Origin: Schizochytrium sp. TIO01 | Lineage: Eukaryota; Protista; Bigyra: Labyrinthulomycetes | Assembly (NCBI GenBank): GCA_004764695.1 | Contig: SMSO01000014.1 | Location: 3,343,648-3,407,647, forward strand | Direction: 5' to 3' | DNA length: 64,000 bases | Part shown: positions 7,121-61,600 of the stretch, piece by piece | How the letters are laid out: the number at the start of each line of letters is the position of its first letter | How positions within the stretch are numbered: the first letter of the stretch is position 1 | Translations under genes and position numbers: made by a program | Notes under the pieces: generated by a model | Database searches by the model: none | What the model was told of the DNA's origin: nothing | Seen by the model: only the letters and a program-made list of their open reading frames with translations

Positions 7121-7125
7121 TTTAC

Positions 7126-13200: not shown

Positions 13201-15413
13201 AAGGCCCAGAGCACGCACGAAGCGCTGCACCCGCGCGGATCGCAGGGTGGTCTATCTGCAAGCTGGTAGGGTCCAGCTGCGGTAGCCTCAGCACGAGCGG
13301 GCCCTTGTCGCGCTCGCTCATCAGCCGAGTGCGCGAATCGAAAGGACCCTTTCGCCTTCATTTCTCTTTTCTTATTTCTTTTCCTTGGTTTCTTTGTCTT
13401 TTCCGAGCGAGCGAGTTGGATAGGGCCAGCGGAGCTCCAGCAAGGTCATAGAGAAGAGGCCAGGCGTCATAACCTGTGCGCTGAGGCCTCGTTCCTGCCT
13501 CTTCCTCGAAGTCTTTAGCATCAGTGGTGTCTTTGTTCTTCTGAGGTTGTGATTCGTCACAACAAGCTAATTAAATTAGTTTGCGAGAACAGAGCATCAC
13601 CCCCTCAAGAAAGCAGCAACTCAGTTCTCTTGCAACAGAGCAAGACTTTACTTGGAGCTCTACTGGGCTTACCTGTGTGCGATCAGGCGTGCGACGCCAC
13701 GGAGAATCGTGCCTTGCTGGTCCCGATCGAACTATATCACATATTTCAGTTCGGGCACGGTAAGACTGCCAGCTGAGAGGACCGCGGTTTGATTAGACCC
13801 AATATTGAGGCCATCTCATCATTCATCGGTACCTTATTGGGGAGCTAATTTCGCATTCATTTTGCTCTCAACGCTCGCTGGCTCGCCGGCTTGTTCTTCA
13901 TCAAAATATCACCATCATACGTGCTTGTTCGTTGCCTTTTCGAGCAGTGCTTGCGAAACCCTGTATTGTATTCACGGCGAGTGAGTGTGTGATCCGGCGG
14001 TGTCCTTGTAAACAAGTCGGCTGGGGAACCTTCGGAACATAACCACCTGGCAGGACGCAATAAACACCATCTTCGTGAATAACGCTAGGTTGCGGCTGTT
14101 TTTGCTTCTTGTTCTTCTTCGGCTTCTATTGATCGTAGCAAGCTCTTCATATCGCTCGAAACTCTGCAGGTGCACGAGATTGTGCGAGCGAGGCCCTGTT
14201 TTCCCCCTCTGGCGTTCTCTCTCTCACGTTCTTTACTCAGTAACTTCTCACTGTGGGATCATTCTGCGGGGTCGTCTCTCTGAATCTGATATTTGCCTCT
14301 CTGTTTTCCTCCACACCCCCTCCACCACCACTGCCACAGCATAGGCATAGAGGGAGACGGACGCAAGACGGACGCGACTTCCTGATCAACAAGGTAACTG
14401 TGGGATCGATCAAGCATTGATCTCTGCAAGTCAATTCACGATCCATCGACAATTGATCAGACAGTCAGTTAGTCAAAGCTGCTTGCAAGTGATCAAAACC
14501 GTGAGGCTACCAAACCCAGCAAATATCCAATCGATTAGTTCGTCGTTGGCCTGTCTGTTGTGCACGCCGTCTTCTCCAGTCTTTAAGGCCCTGGTTGGGC
14601 GCCTTTGATCGACTCCCGCTGTTCGTTAAAAGGATCTATCTAGCTCGTGTGGTGTCTTCGTTCTTCGTTCTTCGTTCTCGTTCATCCATCTAATTCTACC
14701 TTGCTGATCAATCTCTGGTTCGTCGATCCATCCTTCCTTCAGGCAGGCACTCAGTCAGTGCCTTGAGCCTGCCTGAGCCTTCTCAAAGGACCAAAGCACC
14801 GATTGATTGGATCGCCTGAATCGCTGCATCATCATTTCCTTTGGTGTGTGCATGAGCGAGTGAGACTTTCTTTCTTTCTCTCTTTCTTTCTTCTTACATT
14901 CCCTCATTTATTGTCTTTCGTTCTCTCTCTGGCTGGACCAAAAGCAAACGACGTGCCCACATCGATCGCAGCTCGGACGCTGCGCCGTGGGCCTGACGTA
15001 CCAGAGCTCCGAGCCACCACAAACTCGGAATACCACTTCGCAGCTGTCCGCGGGACCTGGGCATCGCCTTTGTCTGTGGAAACTCTGAGCTGCAAGGACA
15101 ACTGAGCTCGAACCAGCTCCGGCCTGAGTGGAAGCGAGATAGCGCGAGCTTAGGCGGCCAGCTAGTGCTTGCGGTAGCACTGGTTTGTAGAGTGCAACAG
15201 CTAAGGTTTTGCGTAGAAGTGGGCTTCGCCAAGTCTAAGTGTGTGCAGGAATCGAGAGCGTTGATTTGCTGTGGAGCACGTGGAAACCGCGAAGTAGAGG
15301 AGTGTCGATTGCAGCTCGCTGCGAGAAGATTGTGCGGAAGGAGTGCGCGGGCTGTCGAGCGAGGGAGAGCATAATTATATATTGGGTTAGGTACCAGCGA
15401 CGCGGCGTGGAGA

Positions 15414-19283: not shown

Positions 19284-21512
19284 AGTCTTGATGATGCCAC
19301 TTGCTATGCAAAATTAGGAGCAATTATTTCATTTATTGTCAAGATGACATTGCATTCAACTGCATTTCTGTTATCAAATTTGTTTACTTTTTCTTTTAAA
19401 AGAGAAAATAATTGTTTGTTTGTTGGTTCTTTTGTCTTTATTAGTCTCGGTTATTTGAATATGCTTATTAGCTCTCTATTTACACCAAAGTGCTTAAACG
19501 CTTAATTACTGTCAGACTCTGGATGATAAGTGAGGAGATGTGCAGGTTTGGCACTTGCGCCATTTCCTAGGTGAACCATTGATTCGAATCCTCTCTCTTA
19601 AACGTGGAACTTTTTTGTCTTGAACCTTGCGATGATTTATTCCCCCAGGGACGCTAAATCACCGCAAAACGATATTTAGTGCCCGACGAGAATCTTGGAG
19701 TGCGCAAATGCAGGAAATGTCAAGAACTCCAAGGAATATATGTAAATTCATGTAGAAATTGCATATTCGCAATCGAGAGGTGAAGTCGCCTCCATCAAAG
19801 TCGAGATCCTGCAGAAACTTAAAACAGCAACTGTCAGTATAATGTTGATGACATTCTTTTAAAGAGTGCCGTAGCTTGTTTTCCAAGAAAGTAAAAACAA
19901 AATTAAGGGGGGAAAGGTTGGGTTGCCCAACCAGCTCCAAACGACTCATAACATCAAGAGTTTGGTGGTATATACAGGAAGGCAGTCATGCAAACCATCT
20001 TGTTTGACAATATGCTGCATAATTTCATGCATTATTATAAAGTCGGGGTGTCCCCAAGGATTTGATTGAATATATTATCCTGATTTGAGCGTTGGTGTGA
20101 ACAGACAAGATGTTCGACATCTGCGAATTCTTGTGAATGAGACCACGAAAAGTTCACATGGAAGTAGAATTCTACGTTTTGACACATCCATGAAATCCCG
20201 GAGCATTTTAAGTGCGACGAGGAAAAGAGTCAAAGATACTGCAAACAGAAGCAGAGTGATACGAAACGAAACTCGAGATGTCTTTCAAGTAGCAACAAGC
20301 TATATGCTGGCGTGCTGATTTTCTCGTTCTTTTTATTTAAATATAATTTTGTGCACATTGTCTGTGAATTTCGTCATGGATAAAGCAAGAGGAAATGAAG
20401 CGCTCCAACAGACCCCCCTTTTTTAAATATAGTAGAGTCACCGACATGGGCAAATTTTGTAGATTTGTAAACATGTCTGAAAATCTGCAGAACGTTCTGC
20501 AGTATAGGTTTTCACGGATTTCATAGACTGATCTCCCCGCTCCGTGATTTCAAACTTCTCTACTCTACAACCATTGTAAAAAGGCAGAGCACAGACGCAA
20601 TACGGGTCAGATCATGCATCCTTGCAATGATGCGATTCAATCCATCTAATTTATCCTTCTAAATTTGGCTCGTGGTGAGTTTTAACAAATTCATTGACAG
20701 AACTCTGCAATATTAAGGCCCCCGGCGTTGATTTCTTTCAACACCTATCATAGGGCATTTCTCTTTCTTTGGTTCTTCCCGCCCTGGCCTCATTGCGTTG
20801 CATCAATTAAAACACCTAGTGTCATCTCCAATTCGGTTTCACATGAGAATATCCGTGTAAGGCCCCGGCGTACTTAGTTCTTGTGCTGTATCGGGTGTGC
20901 TTTGCTAAAAAGCGGCATCGCGCTTTTCTCCTGTAGGGGCCCGTGCTTTACGTCATTTCATGCTACTGTCTTTGAATGTGCCACATTTTGAATTGCCAGA
21001 TATGGCGCAATGGCAGGCCAAGGATGTTCTTCAGCATTTACAGGAGCACTTGTCAAGCTACATTTCTTTCCATAGCAATTCCTGATTGACTACCTTTACG
21101 CTTTTACTGGCAGCTTTTGTCAAGGAGCAGTAGTACTAAAACTATACTCCGTGCTCTCGTAAGGTGCAGCTGTCCTTTCTTAGTCCCGAGGGATTTTCCC
21201 GACCAAGACCAGAAGTCGCAGAACCTGCACGGAACTCTATTCATCGTCGACAGGGTGATTGCTGCTGAGGACAGCGCGCGCTACCGCAGTGCTGAATCTA
21301 CAAAACTAGCTAGCTGCCGGGAACGAAAGCGTCATGCTCAGCTTCGCACCTCGACATTCAAATATTACTAGTAGGTAGGTCGTACAAGAACGATTATGAC
21401 AACTTCGTTGCACTCCAACAGTTATGAGATCACCTAGTAGTTTCGGCTAGGAAACGTTTCCGCATATGGAGTAATATAGACCCTAAAAATGAAATAATTC
21501 TTGAACTCAAAC

Positions 21513-21623
21513 TACTGCGGCCCAACATTATACTGCAATAAATCGTTAGCTTTGCCTAGGCTCCGCATTTTTTACTGCCCAGGACTATACTGCAGTGGAT
21601 TGCTAGCTTCGCTTAGGCTCCGC
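21513..21623. repeat. Diverged two-copy tandem duplication, 60-bp period
   Basis: tactgc..tatactgcaataaatcgttagctttgcctaggctccgc vs tactgc..tatactgcagtggattgctagcttcgcttaggctccgc. Confidence 0.65.
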
Positions 21624-22457
21624 GAGCTCTCCTTGCCTAACATTGCCTATTCCCACAGAGATCCGCGTAAACTCAAAAGCACCGCTTGGTGCTAACAGGA
21701 ACAGTGTCTGCTTGGAATAAATAATATTTTACTTATCCACCTTCTCTTTATGCTTATCGCTGTTGGGACAGCAAGCATACTTTCAGTGCTTCCACTTCTC
21801 ACCATAGACCATGATGATCAATCATGATGATGGTGATGGGTGTCAAGACTACTGAACAGCGGACTATTGGTTCTGTGAAGAACTTCCCGTGTGGTCAAGC
21901 TAAAACGCTGTGGCGCCTCACAACGGACTATTTAGCACGTGCGACCAGCCAGCGATATCACAACCAAAGTTGCGATTAAACCAGACACAACGTACTCAGC
22001 ATACCCCAGAGTTCCATGAAACTTCTTTCGAAAGCCAACTTATGAAGCAAGAAATTGAGAGCTCCATTCTCGCATCGATGCAAGTTGAACTTCGAATGCT
22101 CCCCAAACTCGCAACTTAGATACTACTCCTAGAAAAGGGTATAGCTACTACTACCATGCACGCCCAAAGGTGTGCGCCGACCTCGAGTTTGCCAACTAGC
22201 TTTCGTGATCTCAGCAGCAAATTTAATTCACCGCAGCTCGCAATACCGACCAAAAGGCCACCCACAACCCCTTCTTCACGAGAACTCCAACAGGCCAACC
22301 CAGGTGATGGGTTGTTCCTGGTGAGGTCGTCCTTTATTCCCTCTGCCGGAGCGCCAGCCTCCCTTCTTGGCAAGCAAGGTACTCGTGGCAACGTTCAAAG
22401 GAAAAGTGATTATCTAAATAAACAAGCATCAATCAGCCTTCGGCTGGCTGCTCAGTC

Positions 22458-22515
22458 GGTTAGGTTAGGTTAGGTTAGGTTAGGTTTCGTTAGGTTATGC
22501 CAAATTAGGTTAGGT
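22458..22515 (+). repeat. Interstitial (TTAGG)n telomere-like tract
   Basis: About 5 perfect GGTTA units followed by degenerate units. Confidence 0.8.
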
Positions 22516-25500
22516 TTCGCGAGAACCAAGCTTCAAGTTCCAGTTAGGTCCCATCGTCCCGCCTCCCAAGTCAAGTCAGGCGTGAACGAACGAACCCCTG
22601 CTCTACCAGCTAGCGAGCACTTACTAACTAGGGTACTACGGCCTCGACTGGAGATTGAATTGCTCGTCACCGATAAGCTCTGAGGCAGCAGCCTCCTCCT
22701 CGCCGTTCACGAAGCAGGTACGCTAGGTCTGCTTCGCGAGACGAAAGACGCACGTAGCCGACATGTCGAGGTGGATGATAGGTGCTCGTGGGTTTTGAGT
22801 GAGCGGCTTGTGCAATTTAGGTAGTGCAGACCTTTTCAAGAAGAGATGGATAATCAATTGTGTGACGACTTCAAGATAGAACTAGAACTCGCACGCACTG
22901 GCCAGAGAAGGGAAGTGTCCAAAGAACCGCGCTTTGGAGTCCAAGAGGAAGCAAGCAAGGAGAAGGAAGGGACTGCTGTTGTCACCATTCTGAGGTTAGA
23001 ACCCCCTTCAAGTTGGTGATTGATTGGCTATCTCGCCACAGGCTGCGGAGCTTTGGGTCGGGTCGCGAATATGAATATCGAGCTCCACAAGCCATTCTTG
23101 CGCCAGACTCGTAGCTTGATTTGCGGCAAGCACCATTGGTGAAGCGAGCGAGCGAGCGAGCGAGCGAGCAAGCAAGCAGAGATAGACCGACAGAGGCTTC
23201 GATATCGATATCGCTGTGTTGGAAGGTGCTACTTGTATATGTCTTTTCAAATATTAATCGCTGCCTTCCTCTTCTAATAAGGTTGAAAGTCCCTCTTACT
23301 GCTTGCTTGCTATCCTACTAGCTAGCTAGTAGCCGATAGTCGCATGAGTTATGTGGGCGGTCCATTTATGTATCTATCTATGGTGATGGTGCTTCTTTAC
23401 TCTCATCATCAGCTTCAAGTTGCTCGTTCACTGCACGATATGAGTTGGCCAGTCGATCATTTCTGTGTCCCTTCGGCGCAGAGTGAGTCGTTAAGCTTGA
23501 GATTGCATCCCTCGGCAAAGCTTGGCCTATGGCGTTTTGCAAACAAAGCACGCGTTAAATAAGCGTAGCCTGCCTTCCCTCATTTTACAGAGCTGACGTG
23601 AGGACGCTTTTCGCTCCTTGGGCGTAGGTACCGTGAGGACGATGTGGACGACATGGACATCTTTCTGAGGGGATGATCTTGCAAAAGCTATCAGCCAGTC
23701 AGTCAGTCCACCGGCATGCCTTGGATAGCAGCAAAATCTGATCCCCGGAATATGTTAGGAGTTGGCGAATCGTTGCAGTGGATACTGCTACCTTTGACTT
23801 AGCCCTCAACTAGCTAGAAAAGTGACTAAAGTAAACATCATAGGCAAAGTAACTAGTCAGCTCCCGAAGAGGGTTCTCCTTGAAGGTGTTTGTTTCTGCA
23901 GTGTACTGATAAATATTGGTCTTGAGCGTGAACTAAGTTTTCGGAGAGTGTGAGCGACCATCGAAGTGGACAGGCAGTAGGAGGCAAATGCAGATTTGAC
24001 GTGGCGTTGACAGCAGAAGGTGTTGAAGGTTTTCTGGGCTGAGTCTTGGATTGGATTGAGCCTTGGACATTGATTTTTCTGCAGCTTCCTGACAGACTCC
24101 TCAAAACGCCTGTTCTGCTTCCCTTCGGCCGGGCAAGCTTTCCTTTCGGAAGAGACCAGTTAGTTGGCTGTGCTAAAACAATTTTCAATGACTAAAGGCT
24201 AACAATTGAATTGAGTTCTCCTTTTAAAAGAAAATAAACAAATGAGAAAATAATTTAGAAAATATTGTTTTTTAAAGTGAGATTGAATCATACATATTCT
24301 TGGATTTGTGGGACCCACCTTGGTATGGTCGGTTAGCGTAAGAAACAAGCACACATACTACCACCACTGCGTATTTTAAATAGAATATAAATCAGAACAT
24401 AATTAAATATATACATATACTTCCTACTACATGGATGACCAATACACTGTTGTAAATGTTCCCTTGCTGTCTATAAAATTTACAATCATACACTCCTTGC
24501 ACTAACCAATGTAACTTCAAGTCAAAGAAGGTTATTCATTTCATATTTCATGTATAATAATATATATTCCTAAATCTTGAACAAAGGGAGCTAATAGAAA
24601 TTGGATAAATTATAAATTCGTAAAGCAGTCATCTCAAAAGCCGTGCTTGTTGAATTTTTATTACGAGCATGCGCAAAGATGGAAAATAGTTGCTATACCA
24701 CAACCACTCATTTAAAGGCGTATTTACCCTCGACCAGATTCAGGTACTAAAGTTGAAAGACAACTAACCTATATTAAATTAATTTCCATCAGGACTGTTT
24801 AAAATTATAAAATGTTAAAATTTGCATCTTGTATTTAAGAGCTAGTAATCATCAAACTGCACACCCAAAATCCAGCCATTTTACAAGACTCATTCGAATG
24901 CTTTTTGCTGTTACACAATGCATCTAACCAAAAGCATACCCTCCCTTCAAAAACTCATCTCGATGGTGTTTGGTTCGCTTTGCGTAACCACCTTTTCGAC
25001 AAGCAAATATATTGCACAAGCCTCTGCAGGGAGGTCAATTGCAAGTAGCTTTGGTCAGGACAAGTTGCCATGGTAGAATAAGCACAACAAATTTCAACGA
25101 ATACACGCTCGCAGGCTAGTCAGAGATCTTACAAAGTGCTGGACCACGAGATGTGGAACTTGCACATGTTAATACTTTCCATTATAATATTCGTTTTGAT
25201 TATTCACAGTTTCTAGTATTGCAAACGATTTCGAGGAATGCCAACCATTGACTGATGGCGAGTTGTATTTCCTTTGGCTTAGGAGGCCGGTGTAAATCCT
25301 CGGAAGATTAAGCAAGGCTTAAATATCGATTTGAACGTCAAAGGCGCATCGTTCGCAACTAAATTCGCTCGTGTGTCGAATATTTCGTTGCTGAAGACAC
25401 CAAGCTGCTACACAGTTTATATTAAGTGGGAGTGTCTCCGAGAACATCTGAAGGTAATTCATTCCATCAGAGGTTACCGTTCAGGGGCGTTCCCCAAGCC

Positions 25501-28500
25501 AAAAAGAATTTGAAATCGTGCGAGCTTAAAAAAACCTCAAGACATTTCACTCGTACGATGCTCACATCTATCTCGCGCAATAATCAAGTCTACAGATGCT
25601 ATAAGCGCATACGAACGAACAAATATTGCTTTTTCTGGCCGGTGTTGAACGAGTAGCCAACTCTTTGAAATTTTAAAAGTTTTAAACAAAAAATAAATAT
25701 ACATCTATGATAAACTTGAAGGGAAATAGTCTTTTCATAAGTTCAAGTTCGAAACCTGAACAGAGACGAAATAAAAATATTTTTATACTAGGGTCTAAAA
25801 GAAAAGGGAAAACAAAAACAAAAAGAAAAAAGGTCGGTATTGAAAATCTCGGAGAATTGCAAATGATGTCTCTTTCAAATGCAAGGTCTCGGTCATTTGC
25901 ACAAAGAGCTCAAAAAACGCCGACAGGAAGACACTGTGCTGGTCATTCAAGCAAGGCTGTTGTACATCAGGGGCAGAGAAGCGGCGCAGGCTTACGTAGC
26001 TCTTCTTGCAGTCCTCGGGGGATGCTGCTTGCTTCAGGAAATGGAGTTGGTGGAGCTTGTTTTGGCGGCTTAAGACGTGCACTCTGCCAAAGCTTTGCGC
26101 CTCGTGGATAATCCAACGAGAGAAATGCTGAAGTTTCCCCAGTTTTGAAGGGTCCATGCAGAAGAAAGGAAGTAAAAAAATAAAAGGAAGAAAAAAGGAA
26201 AGAGATAGGTTAGATTATTAGGTATAGTCGTTTGAGAGACCGAGTTGAACAGAAATATGTTTATTTTCTAACCTTGGCACTCAAGCTTAACTTGAATTTG
26301 ATTGAGCTGGGCATTTTCATGATACCTTCACCCTCTCCACGTTGCGCTAAACCCACTTCCGAGTCCTGGTGTCTCCGAGATTCTCACTGGGTGACAGCAA
26401 TGTCTGTCTGTTAATGTGCGAAGAGGAGGCATACGTGCTGGCCCCAGCTTCCGTTTCTTGATTTACAACACGTCGTGGCGCGTAATCCATCCTGTCACCT
26501 TATCATCCTCTAATCAAGAAAAGTAGGGGAGAAGCATGTGGTGCGAGCTCGTCCCTTGTGTCCACTAGCTGGACGCGCCGCAAGCCACAGGACCTCTTTC
26601 AATGCTTGAGCACACAACCGAATGCCCTGGTTGCCGCTTGAAGAAGGTAGTCAAAGGCAAGAAATGCAGCTTGTGGCGAGCGATTCGCATATCCACATTT
26701 TCGAATGTTTCAACTTGAACTAGAATTTCGTAGCTTAAAAAAAAAAAAAGGAGTAAAAAACCCTTTTTTAAAGTTTAAGTTACTTTAAAATTTAAAACAA
26801 TTTTAAATCGCATCTATTTATCGTAATACCTACCTGCTAGGCAGTCAAACTAAGCCTGCTTCTATTAGTTAGCAAAGCAAGAAAACCAACCAACCGACGA
26901 CTCGGATCCTAAAGCTCTTTTTGCTGACTTTGGACGATCTGTGGCGGCCTTGCCCTCTGTTTAAACTGCGTCTTGCGCGCGCGGAACCCGGCCACCATCT
27001 GCCTGCAGACGGGCATTCAGATTGACGACACTGGTTCCTGGTTCCTGGAACCTTGGAACTTGGTAACTTTGGCTAGCGGAACTAGTAAATGCCCATTTAT
27101 GGTAAACTGTAGAGCTGGTATGCACTGCATTTAGGAGGTGCGAAATAGCAATTAACACCACCTCCCACCACAACACAGCTTCATACAAAGTTAGAGGGTA
27201 AAAGGAAAAGAGTAAATAAAACAAAACGTTTTTTAATGTGAAAGAGTCAAGATGATAGAATACTGTAAGTAGGGAGGTAGGTAGCAGGGAAAAGAAAATG
27301 CCTGCAAACTGATGGATTTTCGAAATACGTAGTACTGGTTACTGTACTACCCATCAGTCAGAGCCTTTGCACAGAGACAAATACTTCGAGAGAAGGACCC
27401 CAAAGTTTGCAGCGCTATCTCTTTCCGCGCGTACTTCTTGAACTGCGGTTGTTGTTGTTGTATAGTAGTTTTGTTTTGTTTTGTTTTGTTTTTCTCTGCT
27501 GCTTTCTAAATGCTTCGAGCTGTGTCGTTCGTAGTTTCTTTGGTCTTGTGATAGCCGCGACCGCGTTGCTGCGTCCATTTGCTGCTTCTGCGTGCTGCTT
27601 CTGTGCAGTCCGCTGGGTTGCTGTCTGTTTGGTACACTGATTGATTCGCACACGCTAAAGCGCCTCTCACTTCGGGCCTCCGCCTTCGAAGGGTGCGGAC
27701 CAGCCATGATTCGCATCAATTTTGTCTCAAACTCGTCAATTCATTTCTCCGAAGAACTTGGATCTGGAGTCGAGGTCACCAGCCGGCTTGAAATTAAGTC
27801 TGTGCAGCCAAGGCTAAGGGCGACCTCCTCCATTCACGTGTTATGAAACCTTCCCGAGAAGTCAAGAGCAAATGACGGACAGCCAAGTCGATCGATCGCG
27901 AGAATTTCATTCTCGCGAACACGACGAATCTTGAAACCCATCATCAAAAATCACCGACGATGAATGATGCCTAGATATGTGTGCTGAATGCTTTCGCTCA
28001 CGGTTCGCTACGGGGGTGCAGCTGGTAGGTAGGTGGTACGTAAGTATAGGCGGCAAACCAGAATGAAAGGAAAGAGAAAAGAAAAAAAAAGGCAGGAAAA
28101 AAGAAAAAGTCAAACTACAACAAGTGAATCCACTGACTGCAGATGATGCTTTCTTTATGAAGAGCTGCTTCTCATGAAAAACTCGTGGCTGACTTAGATT
28201 TTTTGGTTTGGAGCAATCGTGCCGGCGGAATCCGATTGAAACTCTACATGTTCAAGACAAGCTCGCCCCTCCTCGAGGAAATGGAAGTAGGGAGCATGCA
28301 AAAGAGGCAGTAGAAGCCAGGCGTTTGCCCTGAAATTTAGCGCTCATCAGTTCAAGTAATCACCGCCTCGAGAGCTCGAGCTTGGCCAATGAAGATCGAA
28401 ATTCACGAGATCAATTCTCCAGCGTCAAGAGCTAGCCAGGCAAAGTCAGTAGCCGCGAGGCCCTTGCGCACTGCTGCTGCTGCTGCTGCTGCTGCGATTT

Positions 28501-30123
28501 CTGTGCTGGCAGAGGTGGTCATTGGGAGCTATGGAGCCTTGGAAAATCGTTATTAAGTTTCAAATCTAAAGCTATAGGCTTCGTTGTTCTGCGGCGGTTG
28601 GCGATCGGTGATTCGTCAGATTACGTAGATACATACATACATACCTAGTTTGTAACAAAGTTCAATCTTAAAATTTAACGCCAGAGATGCAAGGCATGAG
28701 AAAACCAGGACAACGCAAGAGGGACGAAGAGCAGTATCAAAAGCACCAGGGGGTGCGGGGCAGACGGAGAGCGCGCGAAGGTGATAGATGGCCCTGCGGT
28801 GGGGAGGATTTATGATCCAAATGAGGTCCCGCTTTCGATAAGTTTTTCGATTTTTCATTTTGTTGACCTGAATTGTAAATTTTAAAAAAACATTTTTTAA
28901 AAATGAAAACAGTGTTTTTCCTTTCTTTAAAATAAAAATAAACAGTGGTACCCAGTACATGACTAGTATGTAATTCTGAAAAGCAGGGTTTTAAAGCTCA
29001 GGTCTCCTTAGCCCCTTGGTGATCGTAGCGTACCTCCCATATACAGGTCCTACCTGCATACTATGGTACACAAATGTTAAAAGAATATGTCTGATTGTTA
29101 CAGCCGCCCAGCTAGTACCTCATAGCACAGAAAGAGAGGGCTGTGAAAGTAACGAAAAGGGAAGGCGAACTGCCTGAGATGTGAAAGATGAAAAGAAAGA
29201 ATAGCAGGCACGGTTTCGACAAAAAGTAAAAGAAAAACTGAAAGAAAAAAGTTGCCAAAAGCAAGTTGGGAGCTCAGGCAACTTGGCTTTCTCGCGGTGA
29301 AAATGCGCGGTGTTTGAGGTGACCTCGGCGCGCACCTGTCTAAATGGTGGGGGCACGAGGCTCGAGCCGACACATTGGCTCAGCCACGCTGACCTCGAGC
29401 GCGTTCACGGCGATGGTAAGAATTCGAGCGAACGGGTGAGGGGTCGAACTTCGCATGAGTGGAATGCTGGATGGATAGAACATGACTCAGCAAGTTGAAT
29501 TATGAGTAGTTCTACCTTCTTTCTTTCGTTCTTGGAAATAAGATTTAAAAAAATTAAAAACGATTATAGGTAATCTTTGATTTTATTTTAAAAAAGCTAA
29601 ACAAATAGGATCTTAAAACTCTCAGGATTAGAATAATCGTGAATGATGAAGAACCGCAAGCGAAAGGCGAAGGACCTCCGGATTCTCGCACCCCGAAGAG
29701 GCTCTCGGCAGCTCAGCGCTCGTCCTGACTAGATTTAAATTCTCCGCGAGGCCAATGTGCCGCAAGCCACGGTCTGCGGGAGTAGCCATGAGAACGAACG
29801 AATACCTTGGTTCGTCTGGAGAGGAGAGCCGAAGATCATCATCCTTTTCCAAAGACCGCCCATCGTTTTATAGAAATAAATTATTTAATAATGCTCGAAT
29901 GGGGAGTGAACAGACAAATATCTAAGCGAGCCTATTCTAAACTGTAGCACCCCCCGTGTCTATGATAAGACCGTGACTATTATTGCCTTGGTTTCCGCGG
30001 CCAAGTTTTCCTGCCTACAGCCACGAGGAAGTTGGCCATTGACGCTGCGCTGTGAGAGGAAGATGGCCAAGGACACAAGGATACTTGCGCTCTACAAAGT
30101 GGTGACTGCTTAGTTTATTGAAG

Positions 30124-30158
30124 ATTGATTGACTGATTGACTGACTGACTGACTGACT
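30124..30158. repeat. (GATT/GACT)n microsatellite upstream of AOX
   Basis: Directly visible; similar tracts at ~48918-48965, ~59843-59906 and ~61298-61330. Confidence 0.8.
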
Positions 30159-30540
30159 GTGATGCGATGTGATGGATCAATCGTGGCGATACTTATGCAA
30201 GTGCTAAGAACTTCCCGAAAGCAAAGAAAATTGGAGGGCCATCCAACCCACAGGCGGTAGGGTTCATTTAAGAGAAAAGGTAGGGGTGGAAGCCCGTACT
30301 GGTGAGCAGGAAGGTGAGTTTTGCATGAAGAGCAGCACAACGAAAGTGGCAGCAGAAGCAAACCCGCAACTCATCGCAACAGCGATAAGCTCAAGAGCAA
30401 AAGAAGAAACCTCAAAGCATTCGAAGCCGCGAGACAAGAATAGCAAACCCCAAACTCAGGGATTTCGATCGAAGACTCACAATAGCAATAGCGATAGCAA
30501 GAAGCACTAGAGAAGTCCAAGTCTCTACAAAGTAGTTAAG

Positions 30541-31518
30541 ATGCTCGCAACCAAGATGATGGCGCAGCGCGGAATGCGCAACATGGGAGCTCGCAACGTG
30601 CTCAACAAGGAAATGAACAACTTCATGCGCACGGCAGCCCAGACCCGCAAGTTTAGCGCGGTCGACAACCGTAAGTACGCATGGGTTGCGATTGAGGCCG
30701 AAGAACTGATTGCCAAGGCTTACGAGCGCCACAAGAAGTACGAGGGTACTGGCCACAGTTTCCCGCCCTCGCTCTCATGTGAGGACCTTGAGTCCCTTGG
30801 TACCCCGTACCACTACGAGCCCAAGCTCATTTCGGACAAGATCGCCTACTACACCGTGAGCGTTCTCGAGAAGTTCATGTTCCTCTTCTTCAGAGAAAAG
30901 TACGACCACCATGCTGTGTGTCTTGAGACCGTCGCAGCTGTGCCGGGTATGGTCGCTGCTGCTCACCGTCACTTCCGCTCCCTTCGTACCATGAAGCGTG
31001 ACCACGGCTGGATTGCCCCGCTCACCGAGGAGGCTGAGAACGAGCGTCTCCACCTTCTCATCTGGATGCAGCACACCCAGCCGACCTTCATTGAGAGGAT
31101 GTTTGTCGGTGTGGCCCAGGCTGCCTTTGTTACCTTCTACACTGGCTTCTACGTCGTGTCTCCCCGCACTGCTCACCGTGCGGTTGGCTACCTTGAGGAA
31201 GCTGCCCACCAGGCCTACAACGACTTCTTGGAGGCCATTGATGAGGGCAAGATCCCCAACGTGCCTGCCTTGAAGATCGCCAAGAACTACTACCACCTCC
31301 CGGACGATGCTATGCTCCGCGATGTTGTTTTGCACGTTCGTGGAGATGAGTGCATGCACCGTGACTTCAACCACCACCTCTCCGACCTCATCCACGACGG
31401 TGGCATTGACAAGCACCCGACAGAGATGATGGAGGAGGTCAACCTCATCATTGAGGCTAAGCAGAAGAGCAAGGAGGCCCGCGATGCCACTGACGCCAAC
31501 AAGGTTGCCACGAACTAG
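30541..31518 (+). CDS. AOX: Mitochondrial alternative oxidase (ubiquinol oxidase)
   Basis: Di-iron motifs LETVAAVPGMV, EEAENERLHL, GYLEEAA, VRGDECMHRDFNH; Arg/Met-rich transit-like N-terminus; strong C-ending codon bias. Confidence 0.97.
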   Translation: MLATKMMAQRGMRNMGARNVLNKEMNNFMRTAAQTRKFSAVDNRKYAWVAIEAEELIAKAYERHKKYEGTGHSFPPSLSCEDLESLGTPYHYEPKLISDKIAYYTVSVLEKFMFLFFREKYDHHAVCLETVAAVPGMVAAAHRHFRSLRTMKRDHGWIAPLTEEAENERLHLLIWMQHTQPTFIERMFVGVAQAAFVTFYTGFYVVSPRTAHRAVGYLEEAAHQAYNDFLEAIDEGKIPNVPALKIAKNYYHLPDDAMLRDVVLHVRGDECMHRDFNHHLSDLIHDGGIDKHPTEMMEEVNLIIEAKQKSKEARDATDANKVATN

Positions 31519-32331
31519 ACTTGAAAATTAGTTCCCGAGCACCGATGCGCAGAAAGTTTCGTCCAATGACTGCGATCCTTTTTGTACGCACAAAACCTAA
31601 CCTTCAAAACACCTTCCCACCAGAAAAAGCTAAAAAGGATGCATGTACATACTGCCACCCCGTCCGCGTGAAGTTGCTACATGCATAATCACAAGTCAGT
31701 CCTTAAACAAGCCAGCTCCAGCTGCCCTAGCAACCCTACCTATCATTGGTCCCGTGCGGACAGAAGAATGCTAGCCTGTAACAAACAATTTTCTATTCTT
31801 CTTCAAGTTTCTTTCTGAAGTCACTCCTTGACCGCAAACTAAAATGTGTCCACATCTTGTCCAAAGACCCCATATTCTCAAAAGTCTGCTCAGTTTACTT
31901 GTTTTCTAAATCCCGCGCTTTCAGCAACTATTACGAGACTTGGCATCTTTTTCTTTAATAATAAAATAAAGATATGGTCTGGTTTGGTCTGTCTTTCATC
32001 TCATCGCACATGTATCAGACTAAAGTTACATATCTTTGTTCACCGGTCTATGTCCAATATCTTCACGTGCCTTCGCGACAATATACTCCCTGATTAGGAA
32101 AGCTGGAACTAGAAAAGCTTACCAGTCCCTGCCTAGGAGGTAGGTAGTACAACTAGTAATTTATTACCACAAAGTAAAGGAAGAGAATCTGAACAACGCA
32201 ATCTGAACAACGCAAAGTTACGAGGACACGACTGGTTTGTCCCTAGAAGGTTAGCTCCCAACGGAAACCTAGCTCTTCAAAGAGTAGAAGGGATCACCTC
32301 GTACTTTCTTAGGTTTTTTTTTCTATATAAA

Positions 32332-35300
32332 ATGGCTAAGAGTAAAAACACTGCGATGATAAGTAAATTTAGAGAAGACCCCCAGGCGCCGGAGAAGCAA
32401 GCAAACTTGCTCGCGATGGGCAAGAAGCGCGTGCATCCCGCTGGGAGCGGGCGACGCAGTGATAGCTCTAGAAGTGAAGGGAATCCCGGCCAGAGTGAAG
32501 GTGTATTGAGAAATGCTAGCGGTGATGTGCCAACGGGTATGCCAATCCAGGCGCTGGTCAAAGTCTCTGACCAGCACGCTGTAGGCGCCCGCAAAACAGC
32601 AGCGGCTCATGGACAAACAGATGTGAGATTTTCGAAAAACAAGGTGTCGGTGGAAGGCCAGGAGTACGACTTTGATTTTGTGTTTGGACCTGAAGCTGGC
32701 GAGAAACAAATTATTGAACGATCCCTTAAACCGCTTGTGAAAAGCTCTTGCCGATGGAGTCTCGGCCTCACTTATTGTACTTGGGTCGTATGGGAGCGAG
32801 AAGAATGCAATGGTGGAAAAATTCCTACCCACAATGGTTCAAGACCTTTTCGCGAACCTCCACCGCGCTCAGGGTGGGAAGCATCAGGCATCGAACTTCC
32901 AAGTCAAAGTTAAAGCCTTTGAGATTTGTGATGAGGTCATCCAAGACATGTTTAATGCAGAGAATCGAGACCTCAGCATTATTCACGATCCTCTAGAAGG
33001 CTATGTTGTTAGTCAGTGTAGTATGCGTGGGCCATACCGCAATGTTGAGGATGTCATCGACGTTTTGGTAGACTCATTCAACTCAAGAACGTCAGGAATG
33101 ACTGATTTTGGACCAGCAAGTAGGCATACAAGTACAATGTGGCAGATTGACGTCGAGCAGAACCATCACCAGCGGCATCTACGCTCAAGGTTGATTTTAG
33201 CTGAGGTTGCTGGCACAGACAAACTAGCTGAGGATCGTTCTGTAATTCGTGCTCGTGAAGGTCCTTCACTTGGCAAATCAGTACTGACACTACAATCAGT
33301 GGCGGAGTCCCTTGAGCGTGGGGAACAAGACTATGCTTTATTTAGTGAATCTAAATTGACACAATTATTAGAAGACTCGCTAGCGGGGAACTGCATCACT
33401 TTAGTTTTAGCTTTGGCCAAACAGGGGGAAGGTGAAGCAACAGCAGCGACTTTACAGCTCGCGGAAATGCTCCGCGAAGGGTCTACTTACCCAGCAATTA
33501 ATGATGAGCGCGTGCAAGGTTTGCTGCGGCGTTATCGTTTACAAATTAACCGCCTTCGCGACGAGATTTCTATTCGTGCTGGACGTGGTGGGGGCACCAT
33601 CAGTAGGAACGGATCTGTCGAAGATGCACAGGAGCTCACGGTCAAGCTGCATGAGCTTGAAGGACGTGTGGTCCGAGACAACCTGGAAAAGCTTCGAATG
33701 AAAGAAGAAAAGGAGAAAATATACGGGAAACTTGTGGAATTCCGAGAAAAGTATAATAAACTTGTGGAGCAGAAATCTTCTATTCAAGCAGCCTCTATCA
33801 AGGGCGAGGAAGAAAAGCTAAAGATTTCGAAAGCTCTTCTTGATCTCCGGATTGAGAACAATAAACTTGTAGAGCGTGCAGAAGCGGAAAAATACGAATT
33901 AGTCACAAAACTTCTTAACGCAGAAAATGAAGTCTTGCAGTATGAGATGAGGCAAGAATCGCACGAGAAAACTATGACTACTCTCAAACAAGACCTTCAA
34001 GAGGCTAATCAGTCCTCTGAAGGTTTCAAATCTGACCTCATCCAACTCAAAGATAGTTACACGCGTCTCGAAACTCAGTTCAAAGAGGAACTCACCAAAA
34101 ATGAAGAGCTTGGCGTAGAACTTCTTACACTAGTGAATCAGAAAAATGCGTTGTTACGTGAAGCCGAAGAGTTGCGAAGAGAGCGTGCTGCATTAGAGGA
34201 AGAAAAGGGCCAGGGTGATGCAAAGTGGTCTAAACTCACCAGTGAGAGAGCTACCCTGGAAGACGACTTGGCAAATGAGAGGCAAATCAGTGAGGAACTT
34301 CGCGCAGAAAAGCTTAAAATCCAGCTTGAACTGCAGCGTAAACAGGTCGAATTCGAGACCCAAAAATTAGACTTGGAACGCAATGCTGCAGACTACAATA
34401 GGGAGCGCGATAGCGAGGTTTCTCAGTTGAAGACACGTTTGGAGGCTGAGATGAAGCGGAATGAAACACAACGCGAACATCTTGACGCAGAAGCTCGAGA
34501 ACTGCGGAGTTCTTTCAAAAGTTCCACGCGCAGGATAAAAGACCTAGAAACACAACTTTCTGAAAAAACGGAAGAGTTATCTCTTCTACGCGCAGAAAAC
34601 ACCCGTCTTGATGAGAAGATTAATACAATCACAGAAGACTACCGGAATAAGCTTCTCGATCAGCTCAATGTAGGAAGCACGCTTGATGACCATTCATCTC
34701 TTGCAACCTCCTCGATCCTTGAAGCAGCGGACAAAGAACGCGAAGGGCTTCAATCAGAGCTAGTGCAAACATTCAAGAATCGTGAATCAGAGCTTGAAAA
34801 ACGTGTACGAACTTTGCAACAAACGAACCAGCGCATTGTGGAAAAGAATCGTACGCTGTTCTCACGCTACTCAGCTCTACGCTTTAAGCTTCAAGACATG
34901 GAAGTAGACACAGACAAGGTTGAGCTCCTTCAAACTTCTGCAGCATCGGAGGACTCTGACCTTAAGGTAGAGTCGTCACAAATTGAAGAGCAGTTGCGGC
35001 ACGAAATCGTTCAAATCAAACAACGGCTAGAAAAGGCAGGGTCTGATCTTCAAGCTGCTCAAGAAAAAAATATCACCTTAGCGGCCTCGATCAAGCGTAT
35101 CCACCGCGAGCAAGAAGTCCGTATCGCAGATCTCCAGGCTGAAATTAAAATGCTTGAACGTCAGAAAGCTAATCTCGAAGAAGAAAACCACAATATAAGC
35201 CAGAGAAATGGTGGCTCAGGCCATGGCGGGAACGACGCAGAGACAGCAAAGCGCATGCAGGAGATTCAAGATAAACTTTTAGAAAAAATCGAAGAACTAC

Positions 35301-35773
35301 AGTCTGCATCTGCAAATCAGAACAGGTCCAGAAACCAGGCGTCGTCACCGGATCTTGAAAAGGAAAATCGTGACCTCCAAGACCAAGTGGATCGTTACAA
35401 AAGAGAACTTGATAAGACTCGTCGAATGTCGTCACCATTTCCACCAGGTGCAGATGAAGAAGAGCTGAGGCGTTTGCGCGAAGAGAATGAGAAGCTTCGC
35501 AAATTGTACTCCCAGCAGGCTACTAGCAGGGGCGTTAGACCAACAAGCCCTCGTCTAGATTCGCGAGTGTCACCAGGTATGATAGATTCTTCTGCTGCAT
35601 CCCCAAAGCTCAGTGGTCGCCAGTATGCTGATCTTTTAACGCGTGCAACTGTGGCTGAAGAAGAGTTGGAGAATTACAAAACTTATCTCAAGGAGTCACT
35701 TGCTCGGTCCCAAAGAGAAATCAAAAAGCTAAAAGAGGAGCGCGACATGTGGAAGCAGCGTGCTGGAGGTTGA
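32332..35773 (+). CDS. CCDC78: Degenerate kinesin motor domain fused to CCDC78-like coiled-coil protein; one +1 frame break at ~32740-32743
   Basis: Frame 1 has kinesin YDFDFVFGP..LKPLVK. Removing one A joins it to ALADGVSASLIVLGSYGSEKN and the 987-aa ORF (LAEVAGTD, SKLTQLLEDSLAGNCIT). EEEKLKISKALLDLRIENNKL..AEKYEL and LLTRATVAEEEL..Y..REIKKLK resemble the conserved blocks of CCDC78 (recalled). Start codon uncertain. Confidence 0.78.
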
Positions 35774-55802: not shown

Positions 55803-56817
55803 ACGCCACACACTCAACTCGAGGAGGTTTGTGGTGCCTGGCGAGTGATATGATACTATCTATTCTTTAGTTTATATCAACATCCTGAAGGGAAAAACTA
55901 AAGAGAAAATATGACGATAATATAACGCTCTATCTCCAAGACTTTTTGCTAAAGCTCGTTCAATAAACAGCGGGAGTCTAATTATTACCTGATTTTGGTG
56001 GCGACATGAAAGCGATCGTTGTTGATTTACAGGGCCTTTGTATAACCTTCAAAAGGTGATGATTGTGAAAGCGTGGCCAACCTGGCCACATCAGACCACG
56101 TAATATTAATATACATGCATTTTAAAGTTTGTGCCTACAAAGCAGATTTAAGTGAAACGATGCGGTTGTTCGTGTTCCGCGCTATGTGGAACAAATCCTT
56201 GCCTATGGTGTCTTAACTCTGGTATCGTCATGACTAAGGAAGCAGGAGAGAGGAGTCGGCAAGACAAGACAAATATGTGATGTGATGAAGGACTCATTGA
56301 GATATTTCAAGAAAAGCAAAACACATCTCATGATTATTTGGTGTTTTGAAGAGTAAAGTTAAGTTGTAAAGAGAAGGACCAGAGTGTACGGCAGGTGAGT
56401 TTCCACTTATACAGTTGGTCCAAAGACAAAATGATAACCTATTTATATCCTCACCGAGATGCAGTTGCATCTCGGAGCACTCAAAACTGAGATTATAGCT
56501 GCGTTGTGCGCGAATGAATAAAGTCTGTAGGTTATAGTCGAGTGCCCAACAAAGAAAAGCATAAGAAGAAAGTTCAGGTCTATATATGCCCCACAACCAA
56601 CATCAAAGAGACACTGCTATACATTTTCGAGAAAGACGTAGCTATTCTTTTTGAGATTGTGTTTTGTACCATGCGTGAAGAACATTCATCTTCTTGAAGA
56701 GGGAACGGGGTTGCGAGCAGGGCAACTATACGTATATTTTGCACAGGACAAGGAGGTTTGTTTCAGAGATTGGTCTTATAGGCTGGCAGTCACCGTATAT
56801 AATGAAACATAAGAACT

Positions 56818-58377
56818 TCAGCGAGGGGAGATCTTACTCTGGGGAAGAGAAGGGTCCTGTTTCATCTGCGGCTGTTGGTGCTGCTGTAGATGCTGATACT
56901 GTTGCTGAAGATACTTGTGCTGTGTGAGGGCATTCGGCGGCAGCATACCTGTAAGCTGGGCGAGCTGTGCAGGGGTCATGTTCTGGAGAGTGGGAAGTTG
57001 CATCTGCTGCATTTGTTGCAGAGCAGCCGCATGCTGCTGCTGCATGGTAGCAGCCGCGTTATTGGGGTTATTTGCCTGATAATGTGGCATAGCTGCGGCT
57101 GCCGCTGCGGCGACCTCTGCAGCAGCAGCTGCTGCATTGTTGTTGCCGTTGTTGTTGCCATTGTTGCCGTTGTTGTTGCCATTGTTGACGTTGTTATTTC
57201 CGTTTCCAGATGCGTTTTGCGGTGAATTGTTCTTCTCAAGAATATTGATGAGGAACTCTTCGCCCTTATCCCCATGGTTCTCGAAGAGGTAGTCTGCGAT
57301 CTTGATGCGGAAGGCATCTGCCTTTTTGGACGGGATCGTCATGAGCATCCGCACCACTCCGCGAAAACCCACAACATAGGTGAAAGATCCCTGGTTGTTA
57401 AGCTGCACAGATCGGAAATCCCGTGCAACCTCAGGATACTTCCTGCGGTACCACTTCACACGTCTGTTGAGATTTGATGAGTCCACTTCCCCAGTGAGCT
57501 GTTCAATGATGTCTCGTACAGAGAATTCCCCAGTTGCCTCGTGCACACGAAATTTGGAGAACAAAGATCTTATGGACCCCGTGAGATGCACTGAGGTATC
57601 CACATCCTCAATTTCCGACCGAGGGCGCTTACGACGTCTTTGCTGCATGAGCAATTGATGCTGTTGTTGCTGTTGCTGAGACTGCAAGTCGCCGACAACG
57701 TTGTTGACATTTACTCCAGTGCTACCTCCATTTTGCATCTTAGGCTTGGGAATGTTCACACGCATGCTTGTGCACAGTACGTTAAGAAGATCCCTGTACT
57801 GTGACCGAAACTCGTCAGCCTTTGGGTGTGGGAAAGAGCTGCAACATCACGAGAGCATTGGCGGTGGAGAGACGACTTTCGTCGAGACCGGGTTCAGCAT
57901 AGAGCTCGAGAAATCGTGTCCGTGCAGAAGCAGCCTCTGCTGCGAGCCGGGAGGAGAATCCAATGGCAGCCTTACCAACTTCGATAGCATCGAACGGTGT
58001 CTCACTCTCGTCATCGTAGCTAGGTGCAGTACCAAGACGCTCACGGAGCAACGCATGCAAAGATCCCTGCGAGAGCAACGCAATTGGCAGAGGAATGCCT
58101 TGTTGATTTGCTTGCATGACGACGCCACGGGGAAGACGTTGCTGTTGGAGAAGTAAGGAATGCTGAGGACCGAGAGCAGCAAGACCTCCGAGCCCCGCAG
58201 CTCCACCCATGGCTGCAGCACTGCCAAGAGCAGCTTGGGAAGGCGCGAGTCCATGGGCTCCTAAGCTCATGCCGAGAGCTCCAAGACCCTGCATTGTGCC
58301 CGGAAAACCAGCGTACTGGGCCTCGGCTCCCTGAGAAGCATTGCCATTGCTGTTGTTGTTGTTGTTGCCGTTGTTAC

Positions 58378-58409
<32 letters not shown>

Positions 58410-58642
58410 CCGTTGTTGCCATTGTTGTTGCCGTTGTTGTTGTTGCCATTGTTCTGGCCACCGCCGCCATTATTGTTCATGCCATTCATCGCATTCATGG
58501 TGTTCATGCCATTCATGGAGTTCATGTTTCCCTGGAGAAGGTGATGTTGCTGTTGCTGCTGCAAATGTTGATGCTGGAGCTGCTGCTGCTGGTGGAGGCG
58601 ATTGCTATTTCCCTGCAGATGATTACTCCTGGCCTCTGCCAT
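56818..58642 (-). CDS. N/Q-rich putative transcription factor with two tandem Bro-N/KilA-N-like domains; single gene split by a +1 frame break at ~57818-57846
   Basis: ORFs 57815-58642 and 56818-57765 join on removal of one base to give MLQLFPTPKADEFR, which matches the internal repeat MLMTIPSKKADAFR. Also poly-Q/poly-N tracts and NLS-like RRRKRPR; ~607 aa if joined. Confidence 0.72.
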
Positions 58643-61600
58643 TGAGTCTCTCCTGACCCACGGGTCCCGGGTGACTCACCTTATTACCGCTACGGTCACG
58701 CAGGATGTGCGTGAATATAAGGGCGCCCGGCAACCAGGGAGATTGGGTTTTGCTGCTCTCCAGATGGGTGCGCGATTCTTCGCTCTGCTTATTGTATTCT
58801 TTCAGACTGCTTCGCTCTGCTTTCTGCCTATTGTTTCTGCATGGTTTTTACTTTTCTTTTCAATTCCTTATTGGGCCTATTGTTTTTTCCCATCCAGTTT
58901 CTACGGTAGACGTAGCTGTGTTGCTACTGGTCTCGGCTTAGAGAGATGACTTCCTCTTCCTTCAAAAGAATGGGTAAAGAAAAAAGGAAGAAGGAAGAAG
59001 ATGGAAAATGAAAAAAAATAATACATGGAATTGATTACTTTGAAACTTTTTTTTTTCTCCCCCCCCAAAATAGTGCTAGAAAAGAAAAGAAAAGAGAACC
59101 TTTAAAAATTAAGGACCTGTCGTTGCGGTCTTCCCGTGCCGTGCCCTCCTGCGTCGTGGCTTTATCCAGCATGTCAAGGAATCGAGTAAGTTTCTTTCTG
59201 TCTGGTATAGTTAGTTTTGCGCCCTCAACCAATCGCTTCTCTCCTTTATTAAAAACCAAAATTAAAAAACAAAAAACATCGTTTTCTTTGAACAAGAAAG
59301 AGCTTCTTCTTTTGTTCCTGGCAGACAGAGAGGGGAGAGACTTTTTTTTTTTTTTTGGTGTCTATTGGTTTTGCCTCTGATTCTCCTCAAGACCATCTCT
59401 CGATTAATATTTCAGGAGGGAAGAAGCGTGCGTGTTGAAAGAGGAAGGAAAGTGGAGAAAGAAAGCGCGGGTCCGCTGATGCCGACTACTGATCGAAGAA
59501 GGGACAACAAGTTTTCACGCTTGTTTCAAAAGGAAAAGGAAAAGTAGGAAAGTGTCTTTGCAGTTTGAAAAACTATTTTTTATTTCCTCAAAGCCTTATT
59601 TAATTTAATAAAAAAACTTTCCATGGACCCTTTTAATAGAATAATGAGTGAGTGAGTCGAACGCACTGACTGGTGAACATGTTTATTTTGATTTTTTATT
59701 TCAAAATTAATTAAAAGGCATAGTTCAAATGTTGAAATGAAAATAAAAGCATTCCGTCTGTGTAAACAGATCAGAGCAGTTCGCTATCTCGGTACTAGCT
59801 AGCACTTAGCCTGCAGTGTCTCACTTAGTCACTGCGTCGCATAGTCAGTTAGTCAGTCAGTCAATGAGTCAGTCATCCATCTAATCAGTCGACAATGAGT
59901 CAGTCAGAAAGAACAAAGTAAAGGATAGTCAGTGGCAGCGAGCAATAAATGAAAAAGAAAAGAGGAAATTTTCCTCTCCTTCATCCCGCAACCTTTCCTC
60001 TCCTGGTTCAATATATGTACGATTGGCCAGAGGCAGGTCTTGCTAGGGGTCCTTTTGGTTAGTCTCTTGAGTGTAATGGGATGAAATGAAATGAAGTGAA
60101 AGAAATGAAATGGAATGGAATGATGAGCATTCTGTCACAGGAGGATAACTCGTGTTCTTGTAGTAACCAACAGGCGAGAGTGAGGAAGATTTATTCAGAA
60201 CAGATGCAAAGTGCGAGTAATTCATTGAATGATTTTTATTTATTTTTTAAACTAAACTAAAATATTACCTGTTAGTAGGTGAGCGATTTCTTTCTTTTTG
60301 TATGAGAGAAAGTCCAAAACTCAGACAGCGAAGGAGATTCCTAAAAGGGCTTTCTTTTGCTTCAAAAACTAAGTGATGAAGAAAACTGCGATCGCTTTCC
60401 TTTTTCTCCTACGACGAGGACGAAAAGGAGACAAAGACGATCAGATCGTACCTAAAGTGAGGCGAGGAGGTTCAAGGACCATCACGTCTGTCGGACACCT
60501 CTGCAATTTTCGAAAGAGAGAAAAAAGAGAAAAAACAACAACAAGAAAAGTGAGTGGGCTCCAGGTCATTCATGTTTGCACTTCTACTGCTGTTGTATGT
60601 AAGCTGGTCATTCCTTCCTTCCCGAGCATGACACCATTGAATACCCATGTCTATCTATAACACCTGGGGTCTTGAGAATATTAAAAAATAAATTAAAATT
60701 ATATTGTAACAAGCGGGAATAAAGAATCCTAACGATACTACAGTCCTTCCTTCCTTCTTTCCCACTCTTCTCTTTATTCCCTATTCCTCACGCTGTTCAA
60801 TTCCTTTTTGACCAGCGAGGCGAGTGGGGCTGCCTAGCGAATACGGCTACCGTTCCCTTAACACTTGCGGGGACTAAGGATGTCTCTTCTGGGCCTTCTC
60901 TCTCTAGCTAGCTGGAGAGAGCTTTTCGCTTATTATTATGTCCCTGCCTAGTTCAATTCTGTCTTTGGCTTTTGGCCAGTTTCGATCGATGTCCTTTTCT
61001 CTCCGCTTTTCACTCAACTCAGGATGTCCACTGAGAGGTGGGTGGGTGGGTCCCTAGCGGGCGCCTAGCGAGCGGCTCTTGTGCCCAAAACCTGAGTACT
61101 TTTCAAACGACACACATACGTGTAACACACATTTTTTATAGCTACAGATACCTACCTACTCTAAACAAAAAGTCAGTCAAAATCAATGAAAACCATGAAA
61201 AAAAGCAGCGAACCGAGCGAGGAAAAGCAAAAGCGCTCAACAGCAAAAGCAGCAAGCAGGCTTTGCATCCATCGTCAGCCAGGCCTGTGAGGAAGTTAGT
61301 CAGTCAGTCAGTCAGCCAGCCAGCCAGCCACAGTAGCCTCGACGCAAGAAGGACCTGTCGCCCATCCTCTCGCGCCCCAGGCCGATCTACCAAAGGGACA
61401 CACGAACACACACCCGTCGCTGCCTCTTCGAAGTTACCCCGTCTTCAAACCAAGAGCCAAGCCGAGCCAAGCCAAGCTTCTTCTCTTCAGCGGGCCAGGC
61501 AAGTTGCCGTGGAGGTCCTTCTCAGAGAAAGAAGTTCTGCCGTCTGTATTGAAAGCAAGCAAGCAAGCGAGCAAGCAAGCGAGCAAGGATTGATTTCCTG

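Follow-up and report, generated by a model that had tools for sequence, protein, structure and literature searches.

Whether a DNA-binding domain of viral type has become a regulator of its thraustochytrid host is the question raised by one gene of Schizochytrium sp. TIO01, lying in a 64,000-nucleotide stretch of contig SMSO01000014.1 (the window, to which all coordinates refer). An earlier note, made from the letters alone, had read this gene as a host transcription factor built on a Bro-N/KilA-N-like domain of giant viruses or phages. In PMC4862756 (section 9), fungal cell-cycle regulators are described as likely of viral KilA-N origin, which gives a precedent for such domestication, and the fungal tree leaves the donor of the KilA-N-fold domain unsettled; in Medina et al., the non-fungal KilA-N cases listed are Trichomonas and two insects only. 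The core of the claim, a viral domain of Bro-N/KilA-N fold in a conserved host gene, held in our analysis on the matches of fold and profile, the orthologue and the host neighbours. With a probability of roughly 0.6, we read the locus as a conserved thraustochytrid host gene whose domain probably came from a giant virus by capture, and whose product is predicted, from sequence and structural models, to be a nuclear DNA-binding transcription regulator. Its features are collected in Table 1.

Table 1. Features of the regulator gene, in window coordinates
Feature	Position	Strand	Remarks
Host gene	56818..58642	-	Single exon; ~607 aa after removal of the one-base assembly insertion
Likely 5' untranslated region	58643..58746	-	Contig ends of six gene-restricted runs fall at 58704-58746; no ATG before 58642; weak hint
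N-terminal Q/H/N-rich low-complexity tract	58352..58591	-	N+Q 50 of 80 residues, 0 aromatics
Copy 1, degenerate net acidic repeat	57766..58066	-	11 K/R vs 15 D/E; strongly conserved
Extra assembly base	57830..57833		Frame broken inside copy 1; base missing from all 8 runs compared
RRRKRPR, predicted nuclear localisation signal	57619..57639	-	Identical in Hondaea
Copy 2, EsV-1-210/211-like domain, Bro-N/KilA-N-type fold	57232..57579	-	Basic, 18 K/R vs 11 D/E; predicted DNA-binding
C-terminal N-, A- and Q/M-rich low-complexity tail	56857..57228	-	Sequence composition
Likely 3' untranslated region	55915..56817	-	X14 contig starts at 55971, X20 contig at 55915

As assembled, the gene is split over two frames of the minus strand, one running from 58642 to 57815 (275 aa, ending in FPTPKG-stop) and the other from 57846 to 56818. 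The stretch is present in 20 public runs from 11 studies, and we compared eight of these 20 with the window: all eight miss one base of the window assembly, five at 57830 and three at 57833. Because the base is absent in every run compared, the frame break is an assembly error and the gene is one intact open reading frame. The single two-domain gene of the earlier note is thus right after the one-base correction and wrong for the two frames of the window itself, and its reading FPTPKADEFR was a false join of these frames; the corrected junction reads FPHPKADEFR, exactly as in the Hondaea protein. Since the missing base is not the same one in all runs, the pattern suggests that the assembly merged two synonymous alleles. 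Six of the eight coding substitutions listed among the runs are synonymous and the other two fall in the Q/H tract, in a tally of the rows listed, beyond which there are 11 more; all four listed between 57478 and 57914 are synonymous.

The public contigs give a hint that the gene is transcribed. In six runs with contigs confined to genes, the regulator is covered from ~55915-56463 to 58704-58746 with no intron and with empty flanks, the RNA status being a tool's guess for five of the six; the sixth is listed as DNA, and no run is recorded as RNA. In two DNA runs the contigs extend upstream past 58746. Lack of expression had been named beforehand as evidence against a host gene, and what we found are RNA-like contigs over the gene, with RNA status guessed. 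Two apparent joints at 57675-58554 were rejected as introns, being poly-Q repeats joined with sides of about 20 letters. A splice-donor-like AG/GTGAGT stands at 58679 (minus strand) in the likely 5' untranslated region, with no contig using this donor, and a loose end of X20 at 58731 has no placement within the window.

The surroundings are of host type, with eukaryotic housekeeping genes as neighbours. The other long open reading frames of the window encode a copia-type retrotransposon, an armadillo protein, an alternative oxidase, a kinesin-like/DUF4472 protein, a CH-domain protein, a glycosyltransferase, a prenyltransferase alpha subunit, an exonuclease III-like protein and two proteins without family; no giant-virus gene is among them, in agreement with the absence of viral neighbours remarked earlier, and the family profile detects no further copy anywhere in the 64 kb. 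The GC3 of the gene (0.57-0.58) lies inside the host range of 0.39-0.75, and neighbouring host genes are likewise long single reading frames. The more than 5 kb of non-coding DNA reported upstream proved real, as 5,358 bases contain no ATG-initiated frame longer than 128 aa, but such a length is ordinary here (gaps between other long frames measure 8,545, 11,227 and 4,646 bases) and the stretch carries low-depth contigs at about 60,630-61,000. These contigs, seen at ~60,626-61,000 in three of four gene-restricted runs, possibly represent an unannotated transcript. The gaps at 6830-15374 and 19284-30510 hold no frame of 200 aa and no Rfam match. Elsewhere in the window, the gag-like and pol frames of the copia-type element (1761-6829, minus strand) overlap by 40 bases in different frames, which may reflect frameshift expression or an indel, and a tandem peptide repeat lies between its integrase and reverse transcriptase; the alternative oxidase gene (30541-31518, plus strand) has a GC3 of 0.75, and the strand opposite to it contains an open frame of 250 codons.

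The only close relative we found, and the sole orthologue outside the close strains of the window, is GBG23894.1 (P0005) of Hondaea fermentalgiana, of which the first ~575 residues correspond to our gene; the earlier note had held that a lack of orthologues would speak against it, and this protein supplies one. Identity to Hondaea is 105/116 in copy 2 and 77/89 plus 20/28 in copy 1, so that both domains are 87-91% identical against 65-69% for most of the neighbouring kinesin gene (65%, 81% and 66% over its three parts). By sequence comparison, this pattern of conservation is that of a constrained host gene. GBG23894.1 is annotated as CCDC78, and its model runs on at residues 575-640 into the kinesin-like/DUF4472 gene, which in the window is a separate gene on the opposite strand, 21 kb from the regulator. 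The Hondaea entry is probably a gene-model fusion that masks the regulator and, as the kinesin-like gene is 21 kb away in the window, the neighbourhood is partly kept. That kinesin-like gene (32137-35773, plus strand) is itself split over two frames relative to Hondaea, with the break near 32735-32745, probably another assembly indel. A word-based search among proteins shorter than 957 aa with the two-domain Hondaea query returned 0 of 5,773 candidates, in a collection that contains none of five neighbouring window proteins by exact sequence and so gives no proof of absence in other labyrinthulomycetes.

Were the gene a viral insert, recent or in decay, or else a pseudogene produced by the frameshift, the break in the window and the lack of an intron would be accounted for. 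This reading is extremely improbable and largely refuted by the absence of the break in all eight runs, by the conserved orthologue near the same kinesin gene, by the lack of viral genes nearby and by neighbours that are also long single reading frames.

The downstream domain seen in the earlier note, copy 2, is present in the window and belongs to the EsV-1-210/211-like domain family of giant viruses and phages. Among 1.84 billion proteins, phmmer returned ten matches: the Hondaea orthologue (E 1e-68), seven family proteins (E 2.5e-7 to 1.4e-4) and two repeat artefacts, with the matches restricted to the domain and none beyond it. One of the seven, CAK8996123.1, is annotated 'EsV-1-210/211 paralog'; its contig, 8 kb long, is part of a Durusdinium assembly. 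P0006 and P0014 were rejected as family members, being repeat artefacts with no score on the family profile. A profile search, with 33 matches among 7,992 candidates, added members to the family, several of them fused to KilA-N or zinc fingers. Copy 2 scores 52 bits, over positions 23-119 of 136, on a profile of 53 domains from 37 proteins with the thraustochytrid rows left out, and 45 bits on a profile of giant-virus-type loci only, where reversed controls fall below 0; these scores are partly circular because the family set was seeded from copy 2. Independent support for membership comes from the single-sequence model and its fold matches.

The likeness to the viral proteins extends over the domain and ends there. 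EsV-1-210/211-like proteins of phaeoviruses and further giant viruses (EsV-1-211 Q8QN79, Feldmannia species virus B5LWG5, FirrV-1-B3 and CAK8996123.1) have in common with copy 2 a colinear domain of ~100 residues and the motifs S-V-x-D-x-I and P-x-K-x-A-x-x-F-R, at an identity of 24-32% to the viral copies in an alignment colinear over the whole domain; the viral RINGKG-TPV motif has become QLNNQG-TYV. Several relatives carry tandem copies, as the host gene does. Unlike the viral proteins, the host protein lacks the viral C-terminal tail and the nuclease, zinc-finger or KilA-N partners, ending by inspection in low-complexity sequence, and its gene stands as one copy in the window amid host genes, the domains flanked by N/Q/A tracts and a basic signal.

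The single-sequence model of copy 2 (pLDDT 74) comprises strands, a helical bundle, a beta-hairpin wing and two closing helices, the elements of a Bro-N-type fold. When the model was searched against BFVD, ranks 1-5 of 500 matches were Feldmannia virus proteins (best E 3.2e-4), followed by EsV-1-211 at rank 9 and then by Bro-N, MSV199 and antirepressor proteins; one of the 500 reached E <= 0.001, and the Bro-N/antirepressor matches were many, several with a probability >= 0.9 at E 0.02-0.1. In a language-model atlas an unnamed bacterial cluster came first (0.94), then Bro-N, P22_AR_N and MSV199 clusters (0.90-0.92), the Bro-N neighbours at 0.91-0.92 sharing 157-159 features where the tool's mark is 170. 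Copy 2 found no match in Pfam, PHROG, NCBIfam or PDB sequences, Pfam Bro-N (PF02498) and KilA-N (PF04383) gave none at E 1 in either frame, Foldseek against PDB returned nothing at E 0.001, and the family profile (A1) had only chance matches among PDB sequences. The Bro-N/KilA-N assignment made earlier is upheld for fold and family profile, but not by Pfam, where both models are blank, and the source family is EsV-1-210/211-like. We place copy 2 outside the formal Pfam Bro-N and KilA-N families and, judging from the model, expect it to work like a Bro-N domain. Its link to Bro-N is indirect: Bro-N and phage antirepressor N-terminal domains are its neighbours in fold and language-model space, and the bridge in sequence goes through phage members below the gathering score.

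That bridge became visible in the viral members of the family. In IMG/VR the family occurs in eight tailed-phage-like loci (L001-L008), rejected as giant viruses on the character of their contigs, and in five giant-virus-type loci. Four of the eight phage family proteins match Pfam Bro-N at E 5e-5 to 4e-4, with 21-24 bits against a gathering score of 25.6; none of the 34 family proteins from protein searches (P0007-P0013, P0019-P0045) does. The domain lacks a Pfam model of its own, though it is widespread among giant viruses, phages and algal assemblies. The phage copies L001:5265-5858 and L008:668-1264 are fused to a DUF559-type nuclease, and other phage copies resemble antirepressors. Two giant-virus-type records were searched and both have an NCLDV capsid gene, with 13 and 3 matches; they contain the sister group of the thraustochytrid pair. 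The immediate sisters P0007, P0008 and P0011 show no viral context in their records. No match came from viral contigs scanned with P0003 and P0010 or from metagenome contigs scanned with P0003 and P0004, and a contig scan with P0034 gave one short match.

We computed three trees, the first of 59 rows, the second of 42 after 17 long, partial or redundant rows had been dropped, and the third of 44, with ten giant-virus-type rows added and 25 earlier and three partial rows excluded. The thraustochytrid pair grouped with P0007 and P0008 in all three. In the third tree, this assemblage groups with the giant-virus copies at 100/99, in an unrooted topology flagged for long-branch attraction, and a clade of the pair with the phage copies is rejected (p-AU 0.007). 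Support is 86/98 when P0011 is absent, and the trees are without firm root; the thraustochytrid branch is very long, at 2.2-2.6 changes per column, and the tool flagged long branches meeting. As the family is diverse in viruses and the conserved gene is found in only one host lineage, virus-to-host transfer seems the simpler reading, and a giant virus is the likely source of the domain. An old eukaryotic winged-helix that resembles the viral family, or donated to it, with no domestication involved, could draw on the 24-32% identity, the long branch and the unrooted trees. We consider this very improbable: beyond Hondaea and scattered viral-type genes of algal and dinoflagellate assemblies, the 1.84 billion proteins contain no cellular eukaryotic family, whereas phages and giant viruses carry diverse members of the viral-type family, and the alignment is colinear across the whole domain.

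Copy 1 had been described as a diverged upstream copy, and in both copies the domain is indeed preceded by the helix GS(L/I)xxL(L/F) given in the same description. When the Hondaea copies were aligned with each other, their global score was reached in 2 of 2000 shuffles and their local score in 0 of 2000, the similarity being concentrated in the last two helices; on this pair, the sequences indicate that the two copies are related beyond chance. BLASTP of the window's frame-shortened copy 1 against copy 2 found nothing. On independent family profiles copy 1 scores -0.2 and 3.6 bits (one of 1000 shuffles above 3.6), with the last two helices alone matching, a weak match to the family profile. 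In an alignment containing a gap, copy 1 is colinear with the family. Its model, of poor confidence (pLDDT 46), is all-helical and without the beta-hairpin wing, and both the fold search and the atlas search were blank. Most likely, copy 1 is a duplicate which lost DNA binding and was kept for another contact. A parallel is the non-binding KilA-N-like domain of yeast Swi6; our literature search for a paper on that domain found none.

Outside the two domains, the tracts of poly-N, poly-Q and poly-A and the RRRKRPR motif are present as first reported; the developmental role and prion-like behaviour also put forward there are speculative. We take RRRKRPR to be an import signal from its agreement with the basic NLS consensus. 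In the other reading frames of the window, N+Q reaches 8-22 of 80 residues, against the 50 of 80 in the regulator, whose N-terminal Q/H/N-rich tract is likely an activation or condensate region. In Hondaea the composition of the arms is kept and their sequence is not. Under the reading we prefer, an EsV-1-210/211-like giant-virus gene would have been acquired by the ancestor that Hondaea shares with this genus, as a tandem from the start or with duplication following its entry, and would have lost the viral C-terminal tail while gaining the basic import signal and the N/Q/A-rich arms. RRRKRPR would bring the protein into the nucleus, where copy 2 would contact DNA via a basic helix (RRVKWYRRK) and the beta-hairpin wing; copy 1, acidic and wing-less, would serve protein contacts rather than DNA, and the low-complexity arms would recruit co-regulators.

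The same viral origin might instead have given a protein scaffold, or a factor acting on chromatin or DNA architecture without sequence specificity. Among solved structures compared with VIA-align, the best match to copy 2 is the N-terminal domain of Deinococcus DdrC (Z 7.6, rmsd 3.5, 89 aligned), at 9% identity and with a Z < 8 that may reflect a common arrangement only; DdrC is a non-specific DNA binder and, unlike the host gene, a bacterial damage-response protein, and the family member P0039 weakly matches a DdrC model (E 0.021). Swi6 (Z 4.6), Bqt4 (Z 4.1) and Mbp1 (Z 4.0) follow at rmsd 4.6-4.9 with 82-88 aligned, amid unrelated rows scoring alike, and the Bqt4 entries matched are complexes with proteins. 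We judge such a role rather unlikely: the combination of long N/Q/A arms and an import signal of basic type is characteristic of eukaryotic transcription factors, which counts against it, as does the near-invariance of the recognition-helix region between genera. On its side, PMC5381508 describes baculovirus BRO proteins as DNA-binding and nucleosome-associated.

A regulator aimed at viruses, which would bind or block sites or partners used by related viral proteins and help to keep resident giant viruses quiet, is improbable in our view. It draws on the supplement of PMC12606086, in which ORF 753 of the mirusvirus AurliV-1 and a fragment, ORF 566, have KilA-N-containing proteins as best annotated matches; the N-terminal domain of ORF 753 belongs, by eye, to another subfamily, and the near-invariance across genera, with purely synonymous variants inside the domains, points to a core host role more than to an arms race. 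The C-terminal tail of ORF 753/ORF 566 resembles, by eye, the tails of P0007, P0034 and P0039 (PMC12606086 supplement 3), and the resident mirusvirus may have proteins of related architecture. A term search for a Bro-N or EsV label found none in the supplements of PMC12606086.

More tentatively, the gene could be a second, independent case of the SBF/APSES kind, a core thraustochytrid transcription factor with copy 1 as its non-DNA-binding partner module, controlling a life-cycle or cell-cycle programme or viral silence. In outline, according to PMC4862756, fungal SBF/MBF and APSES proteins (Mbp1, Swi4, Swi6, Bqt4) likewise retain a viral domain of such fold as a host nuclear protein. The host gene differs from them in having no KilA-N match and no ankyrin repeats; its domain is of another viral subfamily, its copies stand in tandem within a single chain, and its host is a stramenopile. 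In PMC12721341, Bro-N is fused to a nuclease in endogenised dinoflagellate viruses and not in a host gene, and bioRxiv 10.64898/2026.08.29.747986 reports gene exchange among thraustochytrids and their viruses. Our literature search, incomplete for subscription papers, found neither an account of this gene nor one of a host factor domesticated from a Bro-N-like domain.

Fungi provide the textbook case of a viral KilA-N-fold domain turned into a family of host transcription factors. The type of event, a viral domain domesticated by its host, is thus known, and the viral subfamily and the host lineage differ from the fungal case. If our reading is true, a separate capture from another viral subfamily in a stramenopile would mean that the route is repeatable, and it would indicate giant viruses as the donor. 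Such regulators would be invisible to routine annotation, as Pfam overlooks the domain and a fused, misnamed gene model conceals the orthologue. Thraustochytrids are industrial lipid producers with genetic tools. Together with the persistent giant viruses that they carry according to PMC12606086, these tools make the claim directly testable.
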